Source: Candidatus Aminicenantales bacterium (GTDB lineage Bacteria > Acidobacteriota > Aminicenantia > Aminicenantales > UBA4085). Taken from it: DNA of 64,000 nt. The stretch is from NCBI GenBank assembly GCA_049515535.1, contig JBEKTZ010000002.1, positions 147,467 through 211,466 on the forward strand. Direction: 5' to 3'. Shown here in pieces: positions 2,838 through 64,000 of the stretch (position 1 is its first letter; every line of letters begins with the position of its first letter). A model generated the notes under the pieces. It was given only the letters and a program-made list of their open reading frames with translations. It ran no database searches and was not told where the DNA came from. The position numbers were made by a program, and so were the translations under genes.

Positions 2838-4562
2838 ATGATCATTAAAAAACGTTGGCCGTTCATCGGCCTGCTTGCGATCTTCCTCATCGTCGGCGCG
2901 TATGCGCTGGTCGCTCCGCGCCAAAGCGCCGGGGACGAAGCGTTCGCGGATTTCGATACGGGCGCCTGCACCGTCATCATGGTGGCGAAAGGCGCGTCGG
3001 CGGACGGCTCGACCCTGACGACCCATACCTGCGACTGCGGGATGTGCGATTGGACGTGGGGGCACATTCCCGCGGCCGATCACAAACCCGGTGAGACGCG
3101 CAGGATTTATCACATCAATCAGTACAAGACCTGGCCGCCCAAGGAAGGCCTAAAGTGGGATCTGATCAAGAAGGATTTCAGCGGGCTGGAGATCCCCGAA
3201 GTCCCGCACACCTATGCTTATCATCGCGGGATGTTCGGATATATGAACGAAAACCAGGTGGCGATCTCTGAATCCACGTTGGGCACGGTCCGGAAGCTCG
3301 TCAACAACACCCCCTCGGCGAAAATCGACCTGTCGACGCTCTCCCTCCTGGGGATGGAGCGATCCAAGACGGCGCGCGAGTGCATCCAGATCATGGGCGC
3401 GCTCGCCGAAAAATACGGATACGGCTTCAACGACGACGGCGAGATGTTCGCCGTCTCCGATCCCAACGAAGTCTGGATCTTCGAAATCATGCCCGTCGGC
3501 CCGCTGTGGACGCCGGGAAGCGGCAAGCCCGGCGCGGTCTGGTGCGCCGAGCGCCTCCCCGACGACAACGTCAGCGTTTGCCCCAACGAATCGCGGATCG
3601 GCGAGATCGATCTCGACAACAAGGAATTTTTCATGGCCTCCCCGAACGTCGTCTCCTGCGCCGTGGAAAACAAGCTTTATGATCCCGCCTCCGGCAAGCC
3701 GTTCAGCTGGAAGCGCGCTTATTCGCCGAAAGAGTTCAGCGCCACGAGCAGCCAGGGACGGGCGGCGCGCCTGTGGCGCTTCTTCGATATCGTGGCCCCT
3801 TCGCAGAAGATCAGCCCCGACACGCCGGACATGAACCTGCCGTTCTCGGTCAAACCCGACAAGAAGCTCTCGGCCCAGGACGTCATGAACATCACCCGCG
3901 ACAAGTGCTACGGCACGCCTTTCGATCCGGTCAAAGGCATCCGCGGCGGCCCCTACCTGAACCCCAATTACTGGAGCGGCACGCGGAAGATCAGCGTGGC
4001 CAACGTCGAATACACGAGCCTGGTCCAGTGCCGCGCCGGACTGCCCAACGACATCGGAGGCATCGTCTGGCTGGCTTTCGGCCCTCAGGACACATCGTGC
4101 TACATGCCCCTCTACGCGGGCATCACCGAGATGCCGAAATCCTTCATGATCGGCGACCATTTCGTGCTGAACCGGGCCTCGGCTCGCTGGGCGTTCGATT
4201 ACACGGACTTCCACACGCAAGTGGCCTACTCCGAAGCCATCGAGGACGTCAAAAAAGCGCAGATCGAATACGAGGCCGGCGTCGTCCAGAAGACGGCCGA
4301 GATCGACAAGCAGGCGCAGGATCTCCACGCTAAGAATCCGGCCAAGGCCCGCCAGTTCCTGACGAAATACTGCCTCGACAACGCCAACAAGGTCGTCAAC
4401 GCCTGGTGGGAACTGGGAGACAAGCTCCTGGTCAAATATAATCATTTCGGATTTTACGACGAGGCCAAGCGAAGCCGGGGCCGCGGCAAGCCCGCGGCGT
4501 CGATCTGGCAGAAAGCCGTAAGGATGATCGACGTTCTCGTCGATCAAGAACCTCAAAGATAA
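2838..4562 (+). CDS. C69-family dipeptidase, secreted, copy 2
   Basis: AAGGAG RBS. CTVIMVAKGASADGSTLTTHTCD motif. Colinear paralog of 1098..2825. Confidence 0.9.
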   Translation: MIIKKRWPFIGLLAIFLIVGAYALVAPRQSAGDEAFADFDTGACTVIMVAKGASADGSTLTTHTCDCGMCDWTWGHIPAADHKPGETRRIYHINQYKTWPPKEGLKWDLIKKDFSGLEIPEVPHTYAYHRGMFGYMNENQVAISESTLGTVRKLVNNTPSAKIDLSTLSLLGMERSKTARECIQIMGALAEKYGYGFNDDGEMFAVSDPNEVWIFEIMPVGPLWTPGSGKPGAVWCAERLPDDNVSVCPNESRIGEIDLDNKEFFMASPNVVSCAVENKLYDPASGKPFSWKRAYSPKEFSATSSQGRAARLWRFFDIVAPSQKISPDTPDMNLPFSVKPDKKLSAQDVMNITRDKCYGTPFDPVKGIRGGPYLNPNYWSGTRKISVANVEYTSLVQCRAGLPNDIGGIVWLAFGPQDTSCYMPLYAGITEMPKSFMIGDHFVLNRASARWAFDYTDFHTQVAYSEAIEDVKKAQIEYEAGVVQKTAEIDKQAQDLHAKNPAKARQFLTKYCLDNANKVVNAWWELGDKLLVKYNHFGFYDEAKRSRGRGKPAASIWQKAVRMIDVLVDQEPQR

Positions 4563-4588: not shown

Positions 4589-5242
4589 ATGAGAAATATC
4601 GTTCTCGTCTTTATCGCGATGGGCGCGCTCCTGGCCCTTCCCAGCATCGCCCTCGGCCAGACTCCGCCCCCCAAAACCCAGCTCCCCGTGCTGACGACGT
4701 CGGCCGGCCAGAGCAACGACGTCAATACGGTCAACGCGGTCTTGGAAGAGGCCGGCATCAAATACGATTATTGCGACGTGCCCTCCCTCGAAATGATCAG
4801 CGCCGGCGTGGGCCTGGCGGGAAAGCAGTCGTCCGAGGGCTTCCATGTCGAATGCTATACCGACACGGCCAAATTCCCTAAGGGCACGCCCTACAAGGCG
4901 ATTATCATCGCCATCGGCGCAAGCCTCAAGGGCATGGGCGCCTCGGGCCTGACCACGGACGCCGAGGAAGCGCGCATCAAGAAGATCGTCGATCTCTGCA
5001 AAAAGAACAAGATCTTCATCATCGGCGTCCACGCCGGCGGAGAAGCCGCCCGCGGACCGGCGGGCAGCGATAACGAACGGATGATCGACGCCGTCGCCCC
5101 CTTCGCGGACTGCCTCATCGTCACCAAGGACAGCAACAAGGACGGCCGGTTCTCCAAGATCGTCGAAAAGAGCAAATCTCCCATGACCCAGGTGGACTAT
5201 GCCCTCGGCATGGTCGATATCGTGAAGAAAATCTTCTCGTGA
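4589..5242 (+). CDS. DUF6305-family exported protein
   Basis: Signal peptide, then PVLTTSAGQSNDV and IGASLKGMGASG motifs that I recognise from DUF6305 proteins. Confidence 0.65.
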   Translation: MRNIVLVFIAMGALLALPSIALGQTPPPKTQLPVLTTSAGQSNDVNTVNAVLEEAGIKYDYCDVPSLEMISAGVGLAGKQSSEGFHVECYTDTAKFPKGTPYKAIIIAIGASLKGMGASGLTTDAEEARIKKIVDLCKKNKIFIIGVHAGGEAARGPAGSDNERMIDAVAPFADCLIVTKDSNKDGRFSKIVEKSKSPMTQVDYALGMVDIVKKIFS

Positions 5243-28912: not shown

Positions 28913-29791
28913 CTATTTTATCGCGCTCCAGATAACCTTGCCATCCGGCCCGAACAGAATCAGAGAAGATTCCGGATATACGATCGTTATTCCTTCTGGC
29001 GATATGATCTTTGTATTTCCTGCCCAGAAACGGGCCTTGCCATTTTCGTCCTTCAGTATCAGACATGGCTTGCCATTTTTGTCCACCATCAGGCTGACGC
29101 GGAATTTGTCATTTTCGTCAGCCAGCCCCAAGCCTGGGCCATCCTTGCTCATCATGGCCAGCTGGGCGCGGAACTTGCCATTTTCATCAAGCAGCCACAA
29201 GCCAGGGCCTTCTTTGCTCATGGTCAGCGCGGCACGATTTTTGCCATTTTCGTCCGATAGCAAAATGCTTGGGCCAGATTTGCCTGTATCTAATCCGATG
29301 GAGTTCTTGCCATTTTCATCCCGTAGCCATAGACCTTGGTCAGCTTTGCTCGCGCCCGCGCCAAGCAAGACGCGGTTCTTGCCGTTTTCGTCATCCAGCA
29401 CCAGGTCCGGGCCATTTTTACCCACGCCAAGCCGAGTGCGGAGGGCGTCATTTTCATCGTATAGTGCAAGGATCGGGCCTTTTTTTGTCACAGCCAACCT
29501 GGCGCCGACCTTGCCATTTTCGCCACACAGAGTCAGTTCCGGGCCATCTTGGGGCGACCATAGCAGGGCGCGGACCCCGCCTTTCTCGTCCTCAAGAATG
29601 AAGCTCCTCGCGCGGATCTGCTTAGACGTTCCCGGCTCTTGTGCCTGTGCTCGGATCACCGTTGTCTTAAACACGCCAGGTGCGACCAAGCCCCCAACTA
29701 CAAGCAGAATCACGCCTAGCAGCCAGCGGTTGCGCCGCTTCAGACGCCCCAGATCTTTTTCCATGTTTTCCAATCGTTCTTCAACGGTCAC
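28913..29791 (-). CDS. Membrane-anchored protein with about nine 22-aa beta-hairpin repeats
   Basis: GTG start; N-terminal coiled coil plus TM; repeats of GPxLxLxDENGKxRxxL. Confidence 0.8.
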   Translation of the reverse strand: MTVEERLENMEKDLGRLKRRNRWLLGVILLVVGGLVAPGVFKTTVIRAQAQEPGTSKQIRARSFILEDEKGGVRALLWSPQDGPELTLCGENGKVGARLAVTKKGPILALYDENDALRTRLGVGKNGPDLVLDDENGKNRVLLGAGASKADQGLWLRDENGKNSIGLDTGKSGPSILLSDENGKNRAALTMSKEGPGLWLLDENGKFRAQLAMMSKDGPGLGLADENDKFRVSLMVDKNGKPCLILKDENGKARFWAGNTKIISPEGITIVYPESSLILFGPDGKVIWSAIK

Positions 29792-44590: not shown

Positions 44591-44600
44591 AGGCCAGTTT

Positions 44601-45896
44601 ATGTCTATCCTCAAGAAAAAAAAGCAAAACCGCGTCTGCGTTATCGGTCTGGACGGCGTGCCCCACGGCCTTCTCCTCGACCTGGCCAAGAAGGGTGTGA
44701 TGTCCTCTCTCGGCAGGATCATCGATTCCGGCCGTCTTCACAAGATGAAAGCCAGCCTTCCGGAAATCTCGGCCGTCAGTTGGACGGACTTCATGACCGG
44801 GACCAATTCCGGCACCCACGGCATTTTCGGCTTCACGGACCTGAAGCACGGCGCTTATGAGCTCCGCTTCCCCAATTTCCTGGACGTCAAAGTTCCGACG
44901 TTCTGGGATGTCCTGGGCGAGAGAGGCTTGAAAAGCATCATCATCAACCAGCCCTCGACATATCCGGCCCGCAAGATCAACGGCGTTCTTCTCTCGGGTT
45001 TTATCGCCGTGGAACTGGCCAAAGCCGTCTACCCCCCATCCTACAAGACCGAGCTGGAGCAGATCGGATATCAGATCGATATCGACACGCTCAAGTGCAG
45101 GGAAAACCCGAGCCTGCTCTGGCAGGAATTGATCAAGACGCTCATGGGCCGTCAAAGAGCCTTGAATTTTTTCTGGGAAGAGGAGTGGGAATATTTCGAA
45201 TTCGTCATCACCGGCACGGACCGGCTACATCATTTTCTCTGGAATGCTTATGAGAATCCCGATCATCCCCACCATCAGAATTTCCTCGAATACTACCGGC
45301 AGATCGACCGGCTGATCAATAAAATCTACGGTGCGTTCCGGAAGACCGCCGGCGATGAAGAAAATATCTTTTTTCTGTCCGATCACGGATTCACCGGCAT
45401 CAAACAGGAAGTCTATCTCAATGCCTGGCTCGAAAAAGAGAAATTTTTGAGATATTTCAATTCGATCCCCAAAGGGCTGGAGGACCTGTCCCCAAAGACC
45501 GTCGCCTTTGCTCTCGATCCCAATCGCATTTATCTGAACTACAAAGAAAAGTATCCCCAAGGCTCGGTCAAACACGGCGAGGCCAAGGCCATCAAGGAAG
45601 AAATCACCAGAAAGCTGGAAAAACTGGAATTCCAAGGAAAAAAAGTCGTCCGGAAGGTCTTCAACGCCAAGGATGTCTATAGTGGACCGCTCGTTTCGAA
45701 AGGCCCTGACCTGATCGTGCTCGGCGAACCGGGATTCGATATGAAAGGCTCGGTCAAGAAAAAAGAGATCTTCGGCCGCACACCCGGCCTTCACGGCATG
45801 CACACCTGGGACGACGCTTTCTTCCTGGCAAAAAACGACTTCGGAGACAAACTCGCGATTTCGGATATTTCGCGCATCATCATGGACCGCTACTGA
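44601..45896 (+). CDS. Alkaline-phosphatase-superfamily NPP-type phosphodiesterase 1 (no signal peptide)
   Basis: IGLDG, PEISAVSW, TDRLHH, SDHGF and GMH metal/nucleophile motifs. Confidence 0.88.
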   Translation: MSILKKKKQNRVCVIGLDGVPHGLLLDLAKKGVMSSLGRIIDSGRLHKMKASLPEISAVSWTDFMTGTNSGTHGIFGFTDLKHGAYELRFPNFLDVKVPTFWDVLGERGLKSIIINQPSTYPARKINGVLLSGFIAVELAKAVYPPSYKTELEQIGYQIDIDTLKCRENPSLLWQELIKTLMGRQRALNFFWEEEWEYFEFVITGTDRLHHFLWNAYENPDHPHHQNFLEYYRQIDRLINKIYGAFRKTAGDEENIFFLSDHGFTGIKQEVYLNAWLEKEKFLRYFNSIPKGLEDLSPKTVAFALDPNRIYLNYKEKYPQGSVKHGEAKAIKEEITRKLEKLEFQGKKVVRKVFNAKDVYSGPLVSKGPDLIVLGEPGFDMKGSVKKKEIFGRTPGLHGMHTWDDAFFLAKNDFGDKLAISDISRIIMDRY

Positions 45897-45904
45897 GGGC
45901 AGGC

Positions 45905-48118
45905 ATGGGCAGCTCCATCAAAGCGCGCTCTAAGATCGTCCTGGCTGCGCTTTTATGGCTTGGCGTGGGGTTGCCTCTCTTTGCCTATATCGGGCCGGGC
46001 GCCGGATTCGCTTTCCTGTCCTCGTTTCTCGTCCTGTTTCTGACATTTATCCTCGCCGTCTTTTCTTTTCTCTCCTGGCCGTTCCGCTTCTTTTTTCGCC
46101 TGATTCGAGGCGGCAAGGCCTACAAGAAAAGCCGCACGGACCAGGTCGTCATCATCGGCCTGGACGGTCTCGCGCCCGAATTGGCCGAGAAATTCATGGC
46201 CGAGGGCAAACTCCCCAATCTGGCAAAGCTGAAAAAAGAAGGCTTTTACGCCCGGCTCCAAACGACGACGCCGGCCATTTCTCCCGTCGCCTGGTCTTCC
46301 TTCATGACGGGTTCCAACCCTTCCAAACACAACATCTTCGATTTTTTGAGCAGGGACCCGAGGACATATCTGCCCGATCTGTCCTCCGCCCGCATCGGCC
46401 CCCCAAAAAAAACGCTTTCCATCGGCAAATATAAAATCCCGCTTTCCAAGGCCGAGATCCGGGGAATGCGAAAAAGCGTCCCATTTTGGAAGATCCTCGG
46501 AGACCATGGGATTTTCAGCACCATCCTGAGGGTGCCGATCACATTCCCGCCCGAGAAATTCAAAGGGCATTTGCTTTCCGGGATGTGCACGCCCGACCTC
46601 AAAGGCAGCCAGGGGACATTCTCCTTTTATACGTCCGACCCGGCCAAAATCCAGAAGCGCGAAGGCGGCATCGCGATTCCGATCGAGGTCAAAAACGATC
46701 GCGTGGAAACGTTCATTTCGGGTCCCGAAAATACCATGCTGAAGGAACCCAAGGAAATCCGCCTTCCCCTGACGATCGTGATCGACCGCCTGAAGGATGA
46801 AGCGCGGATCGAAACGGCGGGACGGAAACTCACGCTCAAGAAAAATGTCTTCTCGCCGTGGACAAGAATCACCTTCCGGCCGGGTCTGGGCTTCAAGATC
46901 AAATCCATATGCCGCTTCTATGTCTCCCAGATCTCGCCTCATTTTGAGATGTACGTCACTCCGCTCAACATCGATCCGGAAAAGCCCGCCCTGCCGATCT
47001 CCCATCCCTTCATCTATTCCGTGTATCTGGCCAAACTCCTGGGCAGCTTCATCACTCTGGGCGAAGCCAACGATACCTGGGCCTTGAACGAAAACGCGCT
47101 CAGTGAAAGCGCGTTTTTGGACTTGACCTATTCCAATCACAAGGAATGGGAAGGGATGTTGTTCAACGCCCTGGACAAGACAAAAAAGGGCCTTGTCGTC
47201 TGCGTCTTCGAGACGACGGACAGCATTTCCCACATGTTCTGGCGTTATCTGGACAAAGCCCATCCGGCCCTGAAAAAAGGGCCGTCTGCTTTGGGGCCTC
47301 AGGTCATCGAAGATCTCTTCGTCAAGATGGACGAAATGATCGGGCGCGTCAGGGAAAAAATGTCCGCCGAAAGCGCGCTTTTCATCATGTCCGATCACGG
47401 TTTCAAGTCGTTCCGCCGCGGCGTCAATGTGAACGCCTGGCTTCACAAAAACGGCTATCTGTTTTTGAAAGGCGAAAAAACCGAATCCGGGGAATGGTTC
47501 AAGGACGTGGATTGGAAAAGAACCAAGGCCTACGGCTTGGGACTGGGCGGATTGTATATCAATCAGAAGAACCGCGAGGCCGAGGGTATCGTCGACTCCG
47601 ATCAGGAGGCCAAAGCCCTGCGGGCCGAGCTTCTCCGGAGGCTCAGCGGTTTGAAAGACGAGCAAAATGGAGAGGTCGCGATCAACCGCGTCTATGACCG
47701 GGACGAAATCTATTCCGGCCCATATAAAGATAACGCGCCCGATCTGATCATCGGTTACAATGCCGGCTATCGGGCCTCTTGGGAAGGCGTCGCCGGGATC
47801 GTAAAAGACGCGATTTTCGAGGATAACGTCAAAGCCTGGAGCGGAGACCATTGTATCGACCCGCCGTGCGTTCCCGGCGTGCTTTTCTCGAGCCTCAAAC
47901 TGGGCGTCAAGGGACGAGCCTTCGCGGCGGAAATTGACCCGCGGGCAAAGCCCGGGGCCCCGTCCGCCGTCGAGACGCCTTCGATCATGGATATCGCCCC
48001 AACCGTGCTCGAGCTTTTCGGCCTTGAACCGCCGGCCCATATGGACGGCCGCTCGCTGCTCGAAAAAAAACTCCCGTCCGGATCCTCTCGGCCGCAAGAA
48101 AGAGAGAAGCCAAAGTGA
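45905..48118 (+). CDS. NPP-type phosphodiesterase 2, membrane anchored, with in-frame repeat insertion
   Basis: N-terminal hydrophobic segments; IGLDG, PAISPVAW, TDSISH, SDHGF and GDH motifs. Confidence 0.88.
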   Translation: MGSSIKARSKIVLAALLWLGVGLPLFAYIGPGAGFAFLSSFLVLFLTFILAVFSFLSWPFRFFFRLIRGGKAYKKSRTDQVVIIGLDGLAPELAEKFMAEGKLPNLAKLKKEGFYARLQTTTPAISPVAWSSFMTGSNPSKHNIFDFLSRDPRTYLPDLSSARIGPPKKTLSIGKYKIPLSKAEIRGMRKSVPFWKILGDHGIFSTILRVPITFPPEKFKGHLLSGMCTPDLKGSQGTFSFYTSDPAKIQKREGGIAIPIEVKNDRVETFISGPENTMLKEPKEIRLPLTIVIDRLKDEARIETAGRKLTLKKNVFSPWTRITFRPGLGFKIKSICRFYVSQISPHFEMYVTPLNIDPEKPALPISHPFIYSVYLAKLLGSFITLGEANDTWALNENALSESAFLDLTYSNHKEWEGMLFNALDKTKKGLVVCVFETTDSISHMFWRYLDKAHPALKKGPSALGPQVIEDLFVKMDEMIGRVREKMSAESALFIMSDHGFKSFRRGVNVNAWLHKNGYLFLKGEKTESGEWFKDVDWKRTKAYGLGLGGLYINQKNREAEGIVDSDQEAKALRAELLRRLSGLKDEQNGEVAINRVYDRDEIYSGPYKDNAPDLIIGYNAGYRASWEGVAGIVKDAIFEDNVKAWSGDHCIDPPCVPGVLFSSLKLGVKGRAFAAEIDPRAKPGAPSAVETPSIMDIAPTVLELFGLEPPAHMDGRSLLEKKLPSGSSRPQEREKPK
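47906..47974 (+). repeat. In-frame palindromic element, short copy (69 bp)
   Basis: 62/69 identical to the two flanking blocks of 63210-63103(-). Encodes VKGRAFAAEIDPRAKPGAPSAVE. Confidence 0.85.
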
Positions 48119-50112
48119 ACGATCCCATCAGCCGCCGGAATTTTCTCAAATCGAGCCTTGGCGCCGCTTCTCTTATGGCCATGGGACCCCGGCCTTCTTG
48201 GGTAACGAAAGCCTACGGCAAAAAGGCGACGGCCCGTAAAGTCGTCATTCTCGGCTTTGACGGTATGGATCCCCGTATGACCGGAGCCTGGATGAAAGAC
48301 GGAAAGCTTCCCGCTTTTCAAAAATTGATGGGCCAGGGAGGTTTCCGTCCGCTCGGGACGAGCATCCCGCCGCAGAGCCCCGTGGCCTGGTCGAACTTCA
48401 TTGCCGGCACGAACCCGGGCGGCCACGGGATTTTCGACTTCATCCACCGCGACGCGAAGCGCTACCTTCCCGTTTTCTCGGCGTCGGCCACCGAAGAGAC
48501 GACGAAGACGATCCGCATCGGAAATACGCTTTTCCCGGTCAAGGGAGGGACCGTCAAAAACCTGAGGAAAGGAAAAGCCTTTTGGCAGGTCCTCGAAGAA
48601 CACGACATTCCCGCGACGGTCTTTAAGATTCCGGCGAACTACCCGCCCGTTCCTTCGAAACAAAGGACGATTTCCGGAATGGGGACGCCGGACATCGTCG
48701 GCAGTTACGGCTTGTTCCGCTACTACACCACCGAGCCCAAGGATATTAAAGAGGACATCGGCGGGGGCGAGGTCCGCCAGGTCTATGTCATCAACCATCG
48801 GATCGAGGCCAAGCTTCCAGGGCCCGTCAATGCATTCAAGAAAGACCGCCCCGAAGCCGAGATCGATTTCAAGGTCTTCATCGATCCGCAGAATCCCGTG
48901 GCCAAGATCGTCATCCAGGACCAGGAATTCATCCTCCGCGAAAAAGAGTGGAGCGGGTGGAAACGCGTCCGTTTCCATCTCATCCCGACCCAGGGCGTGA
49001 GCGGCATCTGCCTTTTTTATCTCAAAGAGGTCCGGCCGAATTTCAAGCTCTATATTTCTCCGATCAATATCGATCCGGGCGATCCGGCCCTGCCCATATC
49101 GACGCCGGCCTCCTATGCCGAAGAACTCGCCGGAAAATTCGGGCCCTTTTTCACGAAAGGCCTTCCGGCCGATACCAGCGCCCTCGATAACGATGTCCTG
49201 GACGAGGGGGAATTTCTCCAGCAGGACGATGTTGTCCTTCAAGAAAGCCGGACCATGCTGGATTATGAGCTCGCCCGTTTCGATTCCGGTTTGCTCTTCT
49301 ATTACATATCGAGCACGGACCAGCGCCAGCACATGTTCTGGCGCCTTTTGGACGACAAGCATCCGTTGCATGACGCCGCATTGGCCAAAAAATACGGAAG
49401 CGTGATCGAGGACACATACCGGGAGGCGGACCAGATCCTTGATCATGTCATGGGAAAAGTCGGCAAGGACGCGCTCATTCTGGTCATGTCCGACCATGGG
49501 TTCAATCCATTTTACCGGAGCTTCAACCTCAATACATGGCTTCGCCAAAACGGCTATTTGAAGCTCGCTAACGAGTTCAAAGAAGAAGACCTGGATCTGG
49601 CTTTCGCCGGAACCGATTGGTCCAGGACCAAAGCCTTCGGCGTGGGATTGAACGGCCTTTACATCAATCAGAAGGGCCGGGAGGCTGAGGGCATCGTTCC
49701 GGCCGGCCGCGAAAAAGAGAGCCTCGTCCGCGAAATCGCGGCGAAACTCGAAGAATTCGTTGATCCTAAAACGGGCGATAAGATCATCCGGAGGGCCTAC
49801 GTGGCTCAAGACGTTTATTCGGGGCCTTATGTCGACGAGGCACCGGAAATCATCCTCGGCTTCAACCGCGGCTATCGCATTTCCAATAAGTCGCCCCTGG
49901 GCCGCGTCCCAAGGGAGGTGGTCGAGGACAATCGGGCCAAATGGAGCGGAGACCACATGGGGGCCGCTGAGATCCTGCCCGGCATCCTGCTGGCCAACCA
50001 GCCGATCAAGGCCGAAGCGCCGGCGCTCACCGACCTGACGGCAACGATCATGGATGTCTTCGGCATCGAAAAACCGAAAGCCATGATCGGGACGACCATC
50101 TTCAAGGAGTGA
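48115..50112 (+). CDS. NPP-type phosphodiesterase 3, Tat-exported
   Basis: GTG start; SRRNFLK twin-arginine signal; GFDG, PPQSPVAW, TDQRQH, SDHGF and GDH motifs. Confidence 0.88.
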   Translation: MNDPISRRNFLKSSLGAASLMAMGPRPSWVTKAYGKKATARKVVILGFDGMDPRMTGAWMKDGKLPAFQKLMGQGGFRPLGTSIPPQSPVAWSNFIAGTNPGGHGIFDFIHRDAKRYLPVFSASATEETTKTIRIGNTLFPVKGGTVKNLRKGKAFWQVLEEHDIPATVFKIPANYPPVPSKQRTISGMGTPDIVGSYGLFRYYTTEPKDIKEDIGGGEVRQVYVINHRIEAKLPGPVNAFKKDRPEAEIDFKVFIDPQNPVAKIVIQDQEFILREKEWSGWKRVRFHLIPTQGVSGICLFYLKEVRPNFKLYISPINIDPGDPALPISTPASYAEELAGKFGPFFTKGLPADTSALDNDVLDEGEFLQQDDVVLQESRTMLDYELARFDSGLLFYYISSTDQRQHMFWRLLDDKHPLHDAALAKKYGSVIEDTYREADQILDHVMGKVGKDALILVMSDHGFNPFYRSFNLNTWLRQNGYLKLANEFKEEDLDLAFAGTDWSRTKAFGVGLNGLYINQKGREAEGIVPAGREKESLVREIAAKLEEFVDPKTGDKIIRRAYVAQDVYSGPYVDEAPEIILGFNRGYRISNKSPLGRVPREVVEDNRAKWSGDHMGAAEILPGILLANQPIKAEAPALTDLTATIMDVFGIEKPKAMIGTTIFKE

Positions 50113-54351: not shown

Positions 54352-56925
54352 TTATCGGAAGTTCAGGACAAGTTCGTGTCGTACATATATGCCTGGAGGG
54401 CCGTCGGGGATTTGGATGTGAATCGTAGAGCCTTCCAAGGCTCCTCCCGTGACGGTCCGGATAAGACGGGCATTGGCCAACCGCAAATCGTAAATGCGGC
54501 CCGCGATCCCCTCGACGACGGCCTTCAGATTCCCGCCGTCCTGCGTCAGACGGATGATCCTCAAGCCCTTGTTGATATCCCCCGTTTCCGATTCATTGGC
54601 CGGAGGCAGGAATTCCGGGGCCGGATCCGTTTCGATTTCGATGAGGTCGCTCTGGGAAAGTCCGGTTTCCACGACGGGCCGGACGGCCTGAGCCAATGGG
54701 TTTGCCTCCAGCCGAAAGGCGATCTTCCGTCCGTTCAGGTTGATGCTTCGGACGCGGGTACCGAGGCCGAGAGCAGGGGCAAAGATCAGCCGGCACGGCG
54801 CGCTTTTCCGCCGTTCGATCTCCAGCGCGATCTTGTTCGCGGATTTTCGATAGCGCAGGGATAGGACTTCGTCCCCGATTTTATAATTCTCGATCGAGAC
54901 GTGCGTCCAGTCCGCCGGAAAGCGCGGCTCGAAACGGACCTCATGTTTTAAAGCGTCTCCTTCAAGTCCAAGCAGTCCCCGGATCAGGGGAAAAACGACG
55001 CCGCTCGAGGAGAAGCCTTGATGGCAAACGCCCTCCTGCGGCCAGATATTCTGTTCGCCGGAGAAGAGCTCGGTGACATATCCGAGCCCGTTGTCGAAAG
55101 TATGGCGAACGGCCGCCAGGAGCAGCCCGTAGCCCTGAAGCGCATAGTCGTTTTTGAATAGGGCTGTCGCCACCCAACCCGTGAGGAACGGCCAGACCGC
55201 GCCATAGTTGTAATTCAAGGGCTCGAAGAAAGCGCTTTTATTCGAAAGCATCCGGACTCCCCAGTCGGTGGTGAGTTCGGAGGCGTTCATCTTTTGGAGC
55301 GTCAGCATGCCGCGCCGGGCGTCGCCCTGACCCCAGGCGAGCGGAACCGCGCTCCACGGCGTAAGTTCCCTGACCTGTTTTCCGTCGGCGTTGAAAGCGT
55401 AAGCGTATTGCTCGTTCTCCGCGTCCCAGAACCTGGCGTCAAGCGCTTTTCTCGCCAGGTCATAATGGTCACGCGCCCGTTTCTCGGAAATTTGATCTCC
55501 CGCCGCTCGGGCCAACTGTTCCATGGCGGAATCCGCCCGGATGCCGGCCGCCGCGAGAAAAATATCGGTTTTGATGCCGGTGAGCGAACCGAATTCGAGG
55601 GCTCCGAGGCCGGCCCGGTCGTTATCCATGAGGCCGTCGCCGTCGGCGTCCGTGGACAGGCACCAGTCATAGGCTTTCTTGATCGAGGCCCAGCTCCGCC
55701 TCACGAACTCCGCGTCTCCCGACGCCCGCAGATAATCATAGCAGGCCGCGATGTAGAACGGCGTGGTGTCTCCATGGATATAGCCGTAAGGATAATCCTT
55801 GAACCAATCGAGATATCCGGCCGCCTGGGACAATTCGTGGGCCATTTTCCCATCGTCGCGCTGCCACTTTTGGGTGAAGGAAAGGGCGTCTTTGACCTCT
55901 GAAAACGCCCCATAGCTGTCAAGGCTCAAGGAATTCATGTAGGCGTCGCCTCCGAAAAACCAGCCGAAACCGGGACGGCCGCCCGTTCCCGATGTTCCCA
56001 GCCCGGCGACAAGCCCCCGGCCGAGGTCGGGATTGTCCACCATCAGGTTATCGTAAGCGACCTTGGCCCACTCGAAGGCCAGGTCGATTTTCCCTTCCGG
56101 CGTTTTGATCCGGAGCGTATCCTGCCGCAGGCGGCGATAATGATCCGCCGCGGCGCGATAAACAGATTCGGGGTCGGCAGCGAGCTTCTCATAGACCTTT
56201 CGGACGTCGTCGCGCTTTCCCTTGCCGCCGGCCATGACGATCGGAATGAATTTCCCTTTGACCTCGTCCTTGTTCTCGATCGCGATCTTGAATTGATTCG
56301 GGGAATCCGAGAGCATATGGGCCGGCGTATAGGAGATCCCCTGCGCGGCCGGCGACCCGATATATCCGTGGTTCTTTCGCGTCGGTTCGCTGATGAGATA
56401 GGCTCTCAGGCCGACGTCCCAGGAAGCGTATTGCCCGCCGAGGCCGGCCGGCCACATCGGCTGGAGCACGGGCAGGAAACTGCAGACGACCGTCACGGGC
56501 TCGGTCGTATCCACGGCCAGAAGGATGACGGCCCCGGGATCTTCGATCGCCGTGACGAATGTCGCCCTCATGGTGAACGATTGAAAGGCGTACGTCAGCG
56601 TCGTCGCCGCGGGCGTCACGGAAATGAAACGAACGATGTCCTTACCGAGAACGGCCTGCGTGCTCGAGCCGAGGAGAAACGAAAACTCGAAATTCCGGAT
56701 GAGCTTGAGCGGATAGGCCCAAGCCTCGAACGTTCCGCTTTCGTTGCCGAGCACGGCGAACCTCCGGCCGGCTTTGTCAAAATACGTGTTCGGCTGGGCG
56801 AGGCGACGGAGTTCGAGATCGTTCGACGCCGTGTCGAATCGCGGGACGAGCCCGTCGCGGTCTCCGGCCGACGCGGTGAACGCTCCCAGGACAAAAATTG
56901 AAAGTGCGAAAATGATTTTTTTCAT
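54352..56925 (-). CDS. Secreted (alpha/alpha)6-barrel glycosidase, glycogen-debranching/amylo-1,6-glucosidase-like
   Basis: Signal peptide; AGL...GFGWFFGGDA, DTTPFYI and YNYGAVWPFLTGW motifs, plus ELFS. Confidence 0.7.
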   Translation of the reverse strand: MKKIIFALSIFVLGAFTASAGDRDGLVPRFDTASNDLELRRLAQPNTYFDKAGRRFAVLGNESGTFEAWAYPLKLIRNFEFSFLLGSSTQAVLGKDIVRFISVTPAATTLTYAFQSFTMRATFVTAIEDPGAVILLAVDTTEPVTVVCSFLPVLQPMWPAGLGGQYASWDVGLRAYLISEPTRKNHGYIGSPAAQGISYTPAHMLSDSPNQFKIAIENKDEVKGKFIPIVMAGGKGKRDDVRKVYEKLAADPESVYRAAADHYRRLRQDTLRIKTPEGKIDLAFEWAKVAYDNLMVDNPDLGRGLVAGLGTSGTGGRPGFGWFFGGDAYMNSLSLDSYGAFSEVKDALSFTQKWQRDDGKMAHELSQAAGYLDWFKDYPYGYIHGDTTPFYIAACYDYLRASGDAEFVRRSWASIKKAYDWCLSTDADGDGLMDNDRAGLGALEFGSLTGIKTDIFLAAAGIRADSAMEQLARAAGDQISEKRARDHYDLARKALDARFWDAENEQYAYAFNADGKQVRELTPWSAVPLAWGQGDARRGMLTLQKMNASELTTDWGVRMLSNKSAFFEPLNYNYGAVWPFLTGWVATALFKNDYALQGYGLLLAAVRHTFDNGLGYVTELFSGEQNIWPQEGVCHQGFSSSGVVFPLIRGLLGLEGDALKHEVRFEPRFPADWTHVSIENYKIGDEVLSLRYRKSANKIALEIERRKSAPCRLIFAPALGLGTRVRSINLNGRKIAFRLEANPLAQAVRPVVETGLSQSDLIEIETDPAPEFLPPANESETGDINKGLRIIRLTQDGGNLKAVVEGIAGRIYDLRLANARLIRTVTGGALEGSTIHIQIPDGPPGIYVRHELVLNFR

Positions 56926-62415: not shown

Positions 62416-64000
62416 CTAAGATTTACGAGATTTCATCAATAAAGTTCCAGCCGGCCGGCCCTCGCCGTGGACAAGCGCCCGGTAAGTCTTCTCGATCCGG
62501 TCCCATTTCTCTTCGCGATCGAGCGACCAGTATCGCCCGATGACGGTCGCGACCTCGCCGATGCCGAGCGCCCGGCACGTTTCCTCCACCTTTTCGACAT
62601 AGATCGCGCCGCTCTCGGGCATTTCTCCGCGCCGTCCTATGAAGCCATGGACGTGGACCTTGGTCAAGCCCGCGTCTTTGGCGAGCTTGAGAAGGGCGAA
62701 AAGGTGCCTGATCGTGCCGTGAGAGCTGTAATGGGAAATGATGCCCATAAGATGAAGAGCCCGATGCTCCCGCTTGGCTTTATCCATGACGCCGAGGAAG
62801 GCCTCATTGCGGAAAAAACTCCCGTCCTCGACGGCCTTGTCGATCCGGACGCGATCGAGAAGGACGCGGCGTCCCGCCCCCAAATGAAGGTGGCCGGCTT
62901 CGGAATTCCCGACGGTTCCCGCGGGCAAGCCGACGGCCTCTCCCGAAGCTTGAAGCAGGGACCGGGGGAATCGGGACCATAGGTCGTCGAAGTGCGGCGT
63001 CCTGGATTGCGCGATCAAATTACCGCTTTGAACCGCGCTCATCCCCCATCCGTCCAGAATGAGCACGACGACTTTTTTCCGGATCGGCGCGTGACGAGGC
63101 CGCTCGACAGCGGCTGGGGCCCCGGGCTTTGTCCGGGGGTCCACTTCCGCCGTACTCGCCCGTGGATATAAGCCACAGGCGAGTGGCGAGCCGAAGGCTC
63201 GTCCCTTGACGAAGAGGCTATGTCCCGTCATTTCTGGGGGTTTCGGGATGTCCAGGAGATCGAGAATCGTCGGAGCGACATCGGCCAGTTCGCCGGATTC
63301 GCGCAAATTCGGGTAGGCCGGCTTTCCGGACGCATCATCGGAGAAAATGAACGGCACGGGATTTTTTGTGTGTCCCGTATTGATCGTTCCGTCCTGATAC
63401 TCCCATTCTTCGACCGTCCCGTGATCGGCAGTGACGATCAGAGCGACCGCTCGCCGCCGCGCTTCCTCGATGACGCGCCCCAATTCCTTGTCCACGGTTT
63501 CAACCGCGCGAATGGCCGCTTCTTTGTTTTCGATATGGCCGACGACGTCGACGTTGGCGAAATTGGCCATGACGACATCGAAGCGAGGGTCGCCGATTTT
63601 ATCGATGACGGCGTCCGCCACGGCCGCGGCGCTCATTTCAGGCCTTTGATCGTAGTTGGAAACGTCCTGGGGAGAAGGAACGATCACCCGTTCCTCTCCC
63701 GGAAAAACGGCATCGGACTTGCCGTTCATGAAAAATCCGATATGGGTCGCCTTCTCGGACTCCGCGATCTTGGCCAGACGAAGCCCAGCCTTGGAAAGAA
63801 CTTCGGCCAACGTGTTCTTGATCTTAACGTCCGCGGGGAAGGCGACGCGGACGCGCAGTTTGGGATCGTATTCGATCATGGTCACAAAGTCGAGATCCAG
63901 ACTTTTTTCGACCGGAAAATGAGAAAAGGCCGGATCGATCAGGCATTGGGTGATCTCGATCTCGCGCTCGCCCCGAATGTCGTAAAAAATGACGGAGTCG
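62416..64000 (-). CDS. gpmI: 2,3-bisphosphoglycerate-independent phosphoglycerate mutase, domain-permuted, 5'-truncated
   Basis: Frame is open to the window edge (DSVIFYDIRGER...). Native C-half motifs (ESEK, ANVDVVGH, ADHG, GHT, LADVAPT) precede native N-half motifs (LILDGWG, GNSEAGH, GRYW). Confidence 0.85.
   Translation of the reverse strand, partial: DSVIFYDIRGEREIEITQCLIDPAFSHFPVEKSLDLDFVTMIEYDPKLRVRVAFPADVKIKNTLAEVLSKAGLRLAKIAESEKATHIGFFMNGKSDAVFPGEERVIVPSPQDVSNYDQRPEMSAAAVADAVIDKIGDPRFDVVMANFANVDVVGHIENKEAAIRAVETVDKELGRVIEEARRRAVALIVTADHGTVEEWEYQDGTINTGHTKNPVPFIFSDDASGKPAYPNLRESGELADVAPTILDLLDIPKPPEMTGHSLFVKGRAFGSPLACGLYPRASTAEVDPRTKPGAPAAVERPRHAPIRKKVVVLILDGWGMSAVQSGNLIAQSRTPHFDDLWSRFPRSLLQASGEAVGLPAGTVGNSEAGHLHLGAGRRVLLDRVRIDKAVEDGSFFRNEAFLGVMDKAKREHRALHLMGIISHYSSHGTIRHLFALLKLAKDAGLTKVHVHGFIGRRGEMPESGAIYVEKVEETCRALGIGEVATVIGRYWSLDREEKWDRIEKTYRALVHGEGRPAGTLLMKSRKS
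63103..63210 (-). repeat. In-frame palindromic element, long copy (108 bp, three hairpins)
   Basis: CGAGCC-TTC-GGCTCG, ACTCGCCTGTGG-N7-CCACGGGCGAGT and CCCCGGAC-AAA-GCCCGGGG. Encodes VKGRAFGSPLACGLYPRASTAEVDPRTKPGAPAAVE. Confidence 0.85.

Follow-up and report, generated by a model that had tools for sequence, protein, structure and literature searches.

The question raised by this locus is why two different enzyme genes in a 64-kb stretch of contig JBEKTZ010000002.1 of a Candidatus Aminicenantales bacterium (the window, meaning the whole stretch of DNA analyzed), one coding for a phosphodiesterase and the other for the phosphoglycerate mutase GpmI, contain closely similar segments that are translated as part of the protein. 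The 19-mer GTCAAGGGACGAGCCTTCG is present without mismatches at 47906-47924(+) and at 63210-63192(-), with a chance expectation of 0.01; the 50 nt that follow it differ at seven positions between the copies, and the pair is the longest inverted repeat (56 nt, 84%) in a repeat search of the window. The gpmI copy has exactly 39 additional nt (63191-63153) separating the two shared blocks, and long open reading frames (ORFs) read both copies in one frame, VKGRAF...KPGAP.AVE. The shared blocks, the extra 39 nt and the common frame, reported in a preliminary description made from the DNA alone, are all confirmed on the sequence. Both segments are members of a single family of mobile DNA elements, small, non-autonomous and able to form hairpins, whose copies are numerous in genomes of Candidatus Aminicenantes (class Aminicenantia), and it can be said with high confidence that the shared sequence is a mobile element of this kind inserted in frame. 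The fuller explanation, in which a mobile hairpin family inserts at GTNGR, has in-frame coding copies with lengths divisible by three and moves as a single strand, accounts best for the observations and as a whole is likely to be correct.

The two copies and their parts are as follows.

47906..47968, + strand: copy 1, short form, a net insertion of 63 nt consisting of GTCAAGGGACGAGCCTTCG and CGGCGGAAATTGACCCGCGGGCAAAGCCCGGGGCCCCGTCCGCC
47969..47973, + strand: copy 1 target GTCGA, host DNA at the right junction, assigned by the family-wide rule from filled and empty sites
47925..47969, + strand: copy 1 3' compound hairpin, outer stem CGGCGG/CCGCCG, inner stem around GGGC-AAA-GCCC
63109..63210, - strand: copy 2, long form, a net insertion of 102 nt
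63104..63108, - strand: copy 2 target GTCGA at the right junction, single in the empty allele (window compared with contig L001)
63153..63191, - strand: 39-nt module of the long form only, with the 3' arm of hairpin 1, hairpin 2 (CTCGCCTGTGG/CCACGGGCGAG) and one A
63108..63152, - strand: copy 2 3' compound hairpin, outer stem CGGCGG/CCGCTG, inner stem CCCCGG.C/GCCCGGGG, from RNA and DNA folds and pair counts in 78 copies

Copy 1 is translated as VKGRAFAAEIDPRAKPGAPSA within the phosphodiesterase, and copy 2 as VKGRAFGSPLACGLYPRASTAEVDPRTKPGAPAA within the linker of a permuted 2,3-bisphosphoglycerate-independent phosphoglycerate mutase (iPGM). The TTCG|CGGCGG junction, where the 39-nt module is absent, is identical in all short copies. 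Both copies lie in the window, and the alleles of the gpmI site were compared using contigs L001 and L002 of JGI metagenome 3300044800, with the window contig as the third. No empty allele of high identity was found for the copy 1 site, whose target is placed by the family rule.

Mobility is seen at the gpmI site, which occurs in three states: the window has the long form, L002 (94% protein identity) the short form and L001 (98%) no insert. The sequence is CTCTTC-GTCGAG-CGG in the empty allele and CTCTTC-[GTCAAGG...GCYGCT]-GTCGAG-CGG in the filled ones, and their alignment thus gives the net insertions of 102 and 63 nt. The elements had been described as 108 and 69 bp long and bounded by GTCAAG...GTCGAG; the closing GTCGAG is instead target sequence that was there before insertion, and the lengths are reduced accordingly. 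The window and L001 are 98–100% identical in nucleotide sequence in each 100-nt bin on both sides of the site (L002 is ~94% identical), and over the 120 nt around the copy 2 site they align without gaps at 99.2% identity; there is no patch of divergence of the kind that a foreign replacement allele would leave. A rare variant, CCCCAGC (2/78 aligned copies), is present in both gpmI copies, and this favors one gain over separate gains. The favored history is a single gain, after which the L001 lineage lost the element seamlessly and the form changed, and the alternative is that there may have been two independent gains at one site. An orthologous intergenic long copy is present in L001 (4594-4701, - strand) and L002 (about 4925-5046, - strand), in antisense 24 nt past the stop codon of a PAP2 gene, and in L002 it is more decayed with its 3' end duplicated. 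This PAP2-adjacent copy is an older insertion common to strains that differ at the gpmI site.

Across the family the left end reads G(91%)TCAAGGGACG, with random sequence in the upstream flank, and the right end reads ...GGCCGCY followed by G-T-N-G-R. Six close pairs of filled and empty sites align without gaps as left flank, GTNG(R) and right flank, and the N does not differ between the two alleles of a pair (targets include GTGGAA, GTCGAG, GTGGGG and GTGGGA), and in this test for target duplication GTNG(R) is present once in both alleles of all six. In the pair L102/L117 the target is GGCG and the left end is still GTCAAGG, which excludes a duplication of GT. The conserved end GGGGCCCCGGCCGCY is followed by GTNG in 112 of 156 copies, compared with a background of 1.4%, and the internal junctions of composite forms account for 25 of the exceptions. 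Because the filled and empty pairs and the nested copies described below agree, the pentanucleotide is the target. Insertion takes place immediately 5' of GTNGR and leaves the target intact and in a single copy; seen from the complementary strand, the element enters 3' of YCNAC and ends in TTGAC. The consensus ends, GTCAAGGGACGAGCC... and ...GGGGCCCCGGCCGCY, have no mutual complementarity, and the element is thus without terminal inverted repeats (TIRs).

Variation is also seen at the phosphodiesterase site. An ortholog (P0436; 790 aa, 97% identical, on a 34473-bp contig) has 53 more element-derived residues in frame, nested at KPG^AP inside the coding copy that aligns with window 47906-47974. 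The insert has thus grown in frame between close strains. Copies nested in others of the family sit at the internal GTGGA of the host copy, and when the insert is removed the host copy is rebuilt with 100% identity. Filled alleles recur in independent data, as with P0121 on 11 contigs and P0435 in NCBI, JGI and ENA.

The abundance of the family is apparent in several searches. Scans for exact 18-mers recovered at least 119 stretches in JGI metagenome contigs and at least 100 in a set with one genome per GTDB species, almost all of the latter in metagenome-assembled genomes (MAGs) of Aminicenantes/Aminicenantia among the matches listed; the MAG JAUYDS01 alone has at least 41 exact 18-mer matches among those listed. 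A profile built from 87 long copies gave 260 nhmmer matches in 1.49 Mb of fetched loci. The density is roughly tens of copies per Mb, and the window has two in 64 kb, with no third copy found in it by nhmmer with the family profile. There are no copies in the viral contigs of IMG/VR, where one 18-mer match is by chance and the 3' core has no match. We found no description of the family in the literature and no paper linking Aminicenantes to REP (repetitive extragenic palindromic) or MITE (miniature inverted-repeat transposable element) sequences; the element family is thus not previously described, and other bacteria have selfish repeats of this type.

The unit is built from a constant 5' block (GTCAAGGGACGAGCCTTCG), the optional 39-nt hairpin module and a 3' compound hairpin ending ...GGGGCCCCGGCCGCY, with canonical net lengths of 63, 102 and 180 nt. 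Among the variants are copies with extra hairpins in the loop, composites of 184 nt, sub-units of 81 nt in tandem, and numerous truncated copies. Tandem arrays of the 81-nt sub-unit (hairpin 2 and the 3' block, with no 5' block) are present at L093 2348-2508 and L164 413-530, an indication that portions of the element may be repeated independently of the rest. At L021 1935-1967 there is a perfect 33-nt palindrome in which the 5' block is joined to its own reverse complement (GTCAAGGGACGAGCC-TCC-GGCTCGTCCCTTGAC), with the rest of the element absent.

Copies within genes are a minority of the family. Genes were called crudely, by a codon log-odds score trained on long ORFs and not by a proper gene finder, and on this basis 38 of 195 non-edge units lie within coding-like ORFs and ~80% of copies are non-coding. 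The net length is divisible by three in 29 of 30 coding copies, compared with 79 of 159 non-coding ones. The consensus is free of stop codons in four of its six frames; in the remaining two the stops are a TAA in a hairpin loop, confined to the long form, and a terminal TGA. The coding copies are distributed among frames as s0 17, a1 9, a2 5, s1 4, s2 2 and a0 1, which departs from uniform use (p = 4e-5). The phase of the target in coding DNA (GTN-GA is in phase 0 at 35% of sites, and xTC-NAC on the other strand at 44%) sets an expectation of 13-14 copies in s0 and 15-17 in a1. The shared frame VKGRAF...KPGAPAAVE is explained by GTN-GAN (Val-Asp/Glu) lying mostly in codon phase 0 together with the 3n lengths, and needs no special explanation beyond these. 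Copies that break genes are removed by selection, and those in tolerant loops or linkers remain, which in the window are the loop before the last helix of the phosphodiesterase and the linker of the permuted iPGM.

The proteins that carry the peptide are varied. The 36-residue peptide of the window is found in 73 cluster representatives (E <=0.001) among 1.84 billion proteins, most of them short ORFs of 42-160 aa. Pfam-confirmed hosts include a Ser/Thr kinase, a DAG kinase whose two domains are separated by the insert, and an alpha/beta hydrolase. Inspection of the sequences by eye adds an EngB-like GTPase and proteins that have the peptide twice. The membership of both window hosts in the alkaline-phosphatase superfamily, which had been pointed out, is thus a coincidence. 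The proposal that a non-autonomous hairpin element creates new peptide segments in this lineage is supported by the dispersed copies, the 38 coding-like units and the mobile alleles.

The earlier view of the element as palindromic needs amendment, in that it is not a single palindrome and consists of a series of two or three hairpins. The long form folds into three hairpins on both strands with the terminal 5-6 nt unpaired; the hairpin nearest one end is 9 nt away from it, and at the opposite end the distance is about 0-3 nt. The short form retains only the 3' compound hairpin and lacks the 5'-proximal one. Single-strand folds have z-scores of -3 to -8.4, and those of the long form, on both strands and as RNA or single-stranded DNA (ssDNA), range from -4.2 to -8.4. 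Across 78 distinct long copies the proportion of paired cells is 93.5%, and seven pairs have changed on both sides, with 14 double-change cells compared with 3.6 in shuffles (0/500). In Rfam 15 the only match in the window at the gathering threshold is a tRNA, and a long copy scores at best 15.8 bits against a cut-off of 42; a known RNA family or tRNA-like structure was rejected for want of a match.

The element is mobile and non-autonomous, with a one-sided 5-nt target, neither TIRs nor target site duplications (TSDs), seamless empty alleles and hairpins near single-stranded ends. Since the hairpins beside single-stranded ends, the one-sided short target, the lack of TIRs and TSDs and the seamless loss all point to ssDNA, we propose that movement would occur by 'peel and paste', catalyzed in trans by a Y1 (or Y2) HUH enzyme of the IS200/IS605/RAYT type. 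The candidate cleavage sites would be YCNAC^ and TTGAC^, with ends YCNAC|RGCGGCCGGGGCCCC... and ...GGCTCGTCCCTTGAC|, and an excised single-stranded circle would have the junction ...CCCTTGAC|RGCGGCC.... That an HUH enzyme moves the element has somewhat less than an even chance of being right. The preliminary description had already pointed to RAYT or IS200/IS605 TnpA mobilization, and the insertion anatomy fits this suggestion; no cognate enzyme was found in the 1.5 Mb of element-bearing loci.

Several observations weigh against the favored explanation or its mechanism. In a jackhmmer probe of ORFs of at least 70 aa from 1.5 Mb of element-bearing loci, using approximate IS200 TnpA and Escherichia coli RAYT sequences as queries, there was no cognate transposase and only one Y1_Tnp-like gene (in L189), and none of the copies in the fetched loci was seen to enclose a gene between its end blocks. 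The widespread short form lacks the 5'-proximal hairpin, so that a hairpin at each end is not obviously present. The forms interconvert at fixed loci (long and short at gpmI, short and composite in the phosphodiesterase) with exact junctions that show no microhomology, the 39-nt deletion junction included, which a simple HUH model does not explain. Covariation is modest, the copies being too alike (88% mean column identity). Finally, frame use also departs from the target-phase expectation (chi-square p = 0.02), with the main deficit in a1, the frame that has the stop codon in the hairpin loop.

The L189 gene matches Pfam PF01797 (Y1_Tnp) with 31 bits and was a weak match in the probe. A copy of the element lies one nt from its start codon, on one side only, between the gene's own leader and the ATG. 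It was rejected as the transposase of the element, given that three homologous loci are without the element and the gene has its own upstream leader, and the copy is a chance neighbor. The gene belongs to a Y1_Tnp-like family of ~236 aa proteins with 1745 matches (L189 769-1482, - strand; L222 4001-4708; L223 4001-4711; L224 75-794), in which the HUH motif is conserved and F or H stands in place of Y, presumably at the position of the RAYT tyrosine. A leader of ~60 nt is conserved upstream in L189, L222 and L223, with too little upstream sequence in L224, and in three loci the gene lies within sugar-nucleotide/polysaccharide gene clusters; the family may be a domesticated transposase. Candidates for an autonomous copy (5' block, gene, 3' block) were also rejected, since matches to the 5' block only are, as judged by eye, truncated copies beside ordinary genes or chance matches. 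One such 5'-block-only match is in a eukaryotic retrotransposon-like contig.

Among known systems the closest mechanistic analogues are the PATEs (palindrome-associated transposable elements) of the IS200/IS605 family, which retain only the ends of the insertion sequence and are moved in trans by its Y1 HUH transposase TnpA. The element has three of five features in common with them (no TIRs, no TSDs and insertion beside a short target). IS200/IS605 elements are defined by having neither TIRs nor TSDs, by insertion 3' of a tetra- or pentanucleotide and by a hairpin at each end (PMC7290912). The likeness to PATEs extends to the absence of TIRs and TSDs, the one-sided 4-5-nt target, hairpins by single-stranded ends, seamless empty alleles and many copies devoid of genes. 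The differences are a shorter unit (63-102 nt, compared with ~271 nt for a single PATE-like example; PMC7290912), no parent insertion sequence or TnpA with these ends in the 1.5 Mb of loci, a short form without one end hairpin, and modules gained and lost in situ.

The resemblance to REP, BIME and REPIN sequences and their RAYT (TnpA-REP) enzymes lies in abundant G+C-rich and mostly intergenic hairpins, with module mosaics like those of BIMEs. The element differs in having no GTAG or CGTC foot tag, in its size of 63-102 nt with two or three hairpins in place of a single 20-40-nt palindrome, and in having none of the preference of REPs for convergent or unidirectional gaps (PMC3733652). No RAYT gene flanked by copies (a REPtron) was found, the L189 Y1 gene having the element on one side only. 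In tag, size, context and REPtron the element thus stands outside the REP/RAYT group.

Phenomenologically the closest analogues are the Rickettsia palindromic elements (RPEs) and the intragenic REPs of several phyla (PMC3733652). In-frame GTAG and CGTC REPs that occasionally lie within genes are reported to encode 20-30 residues, for example in Opitutus terrae and Rickettsia conorii (PMC3733652). The RPEs (RPE-1 to RPE-8; Ogata, Claverie, cited in PMC3733652) are likewise selfish palindromic inserts with frame-compatible lengths that add peptides in frame, and insertion into many unrelated ORFs without disruption is also seen here (38/195 copies, 29/30 with 3n length). The Aminicenantes element differs in occurring in another, free-living phylum, in being mostly intergenic and in having a defined target, GTNGR, and a cause for its frame, and the likeness is functional only. 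Coding MITEs such as the QMITEs of Coxiella burnetii (PMC5896051; reviewed in PMC10969869) resemble the element as small non-autonomous repeats that can lie in ORFs and alter proteins; our family differs in having neither TIRs nor target duplication.

In one further reading the family would not be an ordinary ends-only derivative of a known insertion sequence. Self-assembling hairpin modules could be moved by machinery so far not connected with such repeats, either an unrecognized HUH enzyme or another ssDNA system, with the 3n lengths and stop-free frames as an adaptation for survival inside genes. We regard this alternative as unlikely; if it were true, sub-modules (the 39-nt hairpin and the larger composite inserts) would be gained and lost precisely at fixed loci and the element would be a regular source of new disordered protein loops in the phylum.

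Site-specific recombination on a short core, by an IS110-type enzyme with guide RNA, an integron-like system or a tyrosine or serine recombinase in place of an HUH enzyme, is distinctly unlikely. The target core GTNGR does resemble the left end GTCAA, insertion and loss are seamless, and the 1.5 Mb of loci yielded no HUH partner; however, no such recombinase was seen beside copies in an unsystematic search, and the element is too short for a guide RNA plus an enzyme. The attC core of integrons has the consensus RYYYAAC...GTTRRRY, which the ends do not fit when the consensus is compared by eye.

It is also very unlikely that the sequence is a structured RNA or DNA motif kept by selection (a terminator, an mRNA stabilizer or a REP/BIME-like protein site) with the coding copies as by-products. 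Strong structure is predicted on both strands with some compensatory changes, and most copies are intergenic and near gene ends, at median distances of 44-124 nt. However, using the crude gene caller, intergenic copies are tandem sense in 18 cases, tandem antisense in 22, divergent in 21 and convergent in 14, and this lack of orientation or gap preference makes a terminator-like or REP-like selected role unlikely as the main cause of spread. There is moreover no U-tract and no Rfam match, near-identical strains differ in which copies they have, and some copies are truncated or nested. An exapted secondary role for some copies is possible.

A classical MITE, that is, a deletion derivative of a DDE-transposase insertion sequence moving by cut-and-paste with a duplicated GT or GTC target, retains very little probability. 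MITEs have terminal inverted repeats and target duplications. Both window copies are flanked by GTC...GTC, resembling a 3-bp duplication, and the 63-102 nt size and the copy number are typical. However, the ends GTCAAGGGACG... and ...GGCCGCY are not terminal inverted repeats. The left end does not vary, but the right 'repeat' does at its third base (G 42, C 39, T 7, A 6), which is always the one found in the empty allele. The L102/L117 pair has GT at the left end next to a GGCG target, and the empty allele in a 98–100%-identical strain has no footprint. The MITE reading is thus largely refuted. Exchange of a conserved protein segment between related enzymes, or an assembly chimera, has a negligible chance of being right: both hosts are alkaline-phosphatase superfamily members read in the same frame, but the inserts occupy non-homologous positions in the two folds, ~80% of the family lies outside coding sequence, the peptide occurs in unrelated families and filled alleles recur in independent contigs and sources. 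This reading is refuted by the family census.

The host genes are located as follows.

45905..48118, + strand: host gene 1, a 737-aa membrane-anchored phosphodiesterase of the alkaline-phosphatase superfamily, Pfam PF01663
62416..64000, - strand: host gene 2, circularly permuted iPGM, running past the window end
Permuted iPGM loci: window 62416-64000 (- strand) and beyond; L001 10001-11653; L002 10001-11701

Host gene 1 is the middle of three tandem phosphodiesterase paralogs (window about 44600-50112, + strand). The middle and last paralogs are 38% identical and the element is in the middle one only. That the adjacent paralog (48115-50112) lacks the insert, as described previously, is correct, and the insert is also absent from orthologs of <=81% identity; the 21 residues are carried only by orthologs at 97–99% identity.

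The complete product of host gene 2 (P0001) is 571 aa, with its start ~131 nt outside the window. Its ORF runs from the natural C-terminus of iPGM (...EMTGHSLF) through the insert to the natural N-terminus (RKKVVVLILDGWG...), and in comparison with PDB 1EJJ residues 25-321 correspond to iPGM 220-510 and residues 330-538 to iPGM 3-211. More than 100 homologs of ~535-541 aa, mostly labeled Aminicenantes, are collinear with it at >=98% coverage, and a tandem duplication or misassembly as the source of the C-to-N order was rejected given these permuted homologs. By sequence comparison the host is thus a circularly permuted iPGM, beginning at about classical residue 215 and closing with the natural N-terminal 211 residues, and a literature search found no paper describing one. 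The permutation linker has eight residues from the ancestral C-terminus to the ancestral N-terminus, and the element is located there; the insert had been placed near the C-terminus of the core, and in gpmI it is in fact in this linker between the two ancestral termini.

The suggestion that AlphaFold would place the inserts in loops holds for both enzymes, whose models are of good overall confidence. The model of permuted iPGM P0001 has a pLDDT of 84.7 and a pTM of 0.83, with residues 311-349 (insert and linker) below a pLDDT of 50, and that of the phosphodiesterase has a pLDDT of 81.5 and a pTM of 0.82, with residues 670-689 (the insert) below 50. Both inserts are modeled as coil without secondary structure and flanked by confident elements, the phosphodiesterase insert lying in the loop preceding the last helix, and are predicted to be floppy surface loops.

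Other repeats and candidates in the window were also considered. A site at 54435 with three mismatches was rejected as a copy, since it lies inside a GH116 gene, is conserved in the ortholog and is a chance match. A 15-kb invertible segment between the inverted copies was also rejected, the host genes being intact and collinear with orthologs in the present orientation. A periodic array of 66-72-nt repeats (29035-29602; 6-9 copies, 65–80% identity) is probably a repeat-containing coding region. Segments 1229-1528 and 2966-3265 form a 300-nt direct repeat (74% identity) with a spacing of 1737 nt, and several shorter repeats with the same spacing indicate that this is probably a tandem paralogous gene pair.

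The Aminicenantes are an uncultivated lineage widespread in sediments, and in their genomes the element leads to too many predicted genes: of the 73 clusters with the peptide most are short ORFs, which we take to be mostly spurious intergenic calls. The repeats are expected to break assemblies, and they create protein length variants at the strain level; knowing the element and its GTNGR target lets annotators mask it and separate true insertions from errors. YCNAC^ and TTGAC^ provide a candidate pair of cleavage sites with which to search for the enzyme. A hairpin element with neither TIRs nor TSDs can colonize coding sequence, and its copies extend otherwise conserved enzymes by natural loops of 21-34 residues, as in the linker of the permuted iPGM.

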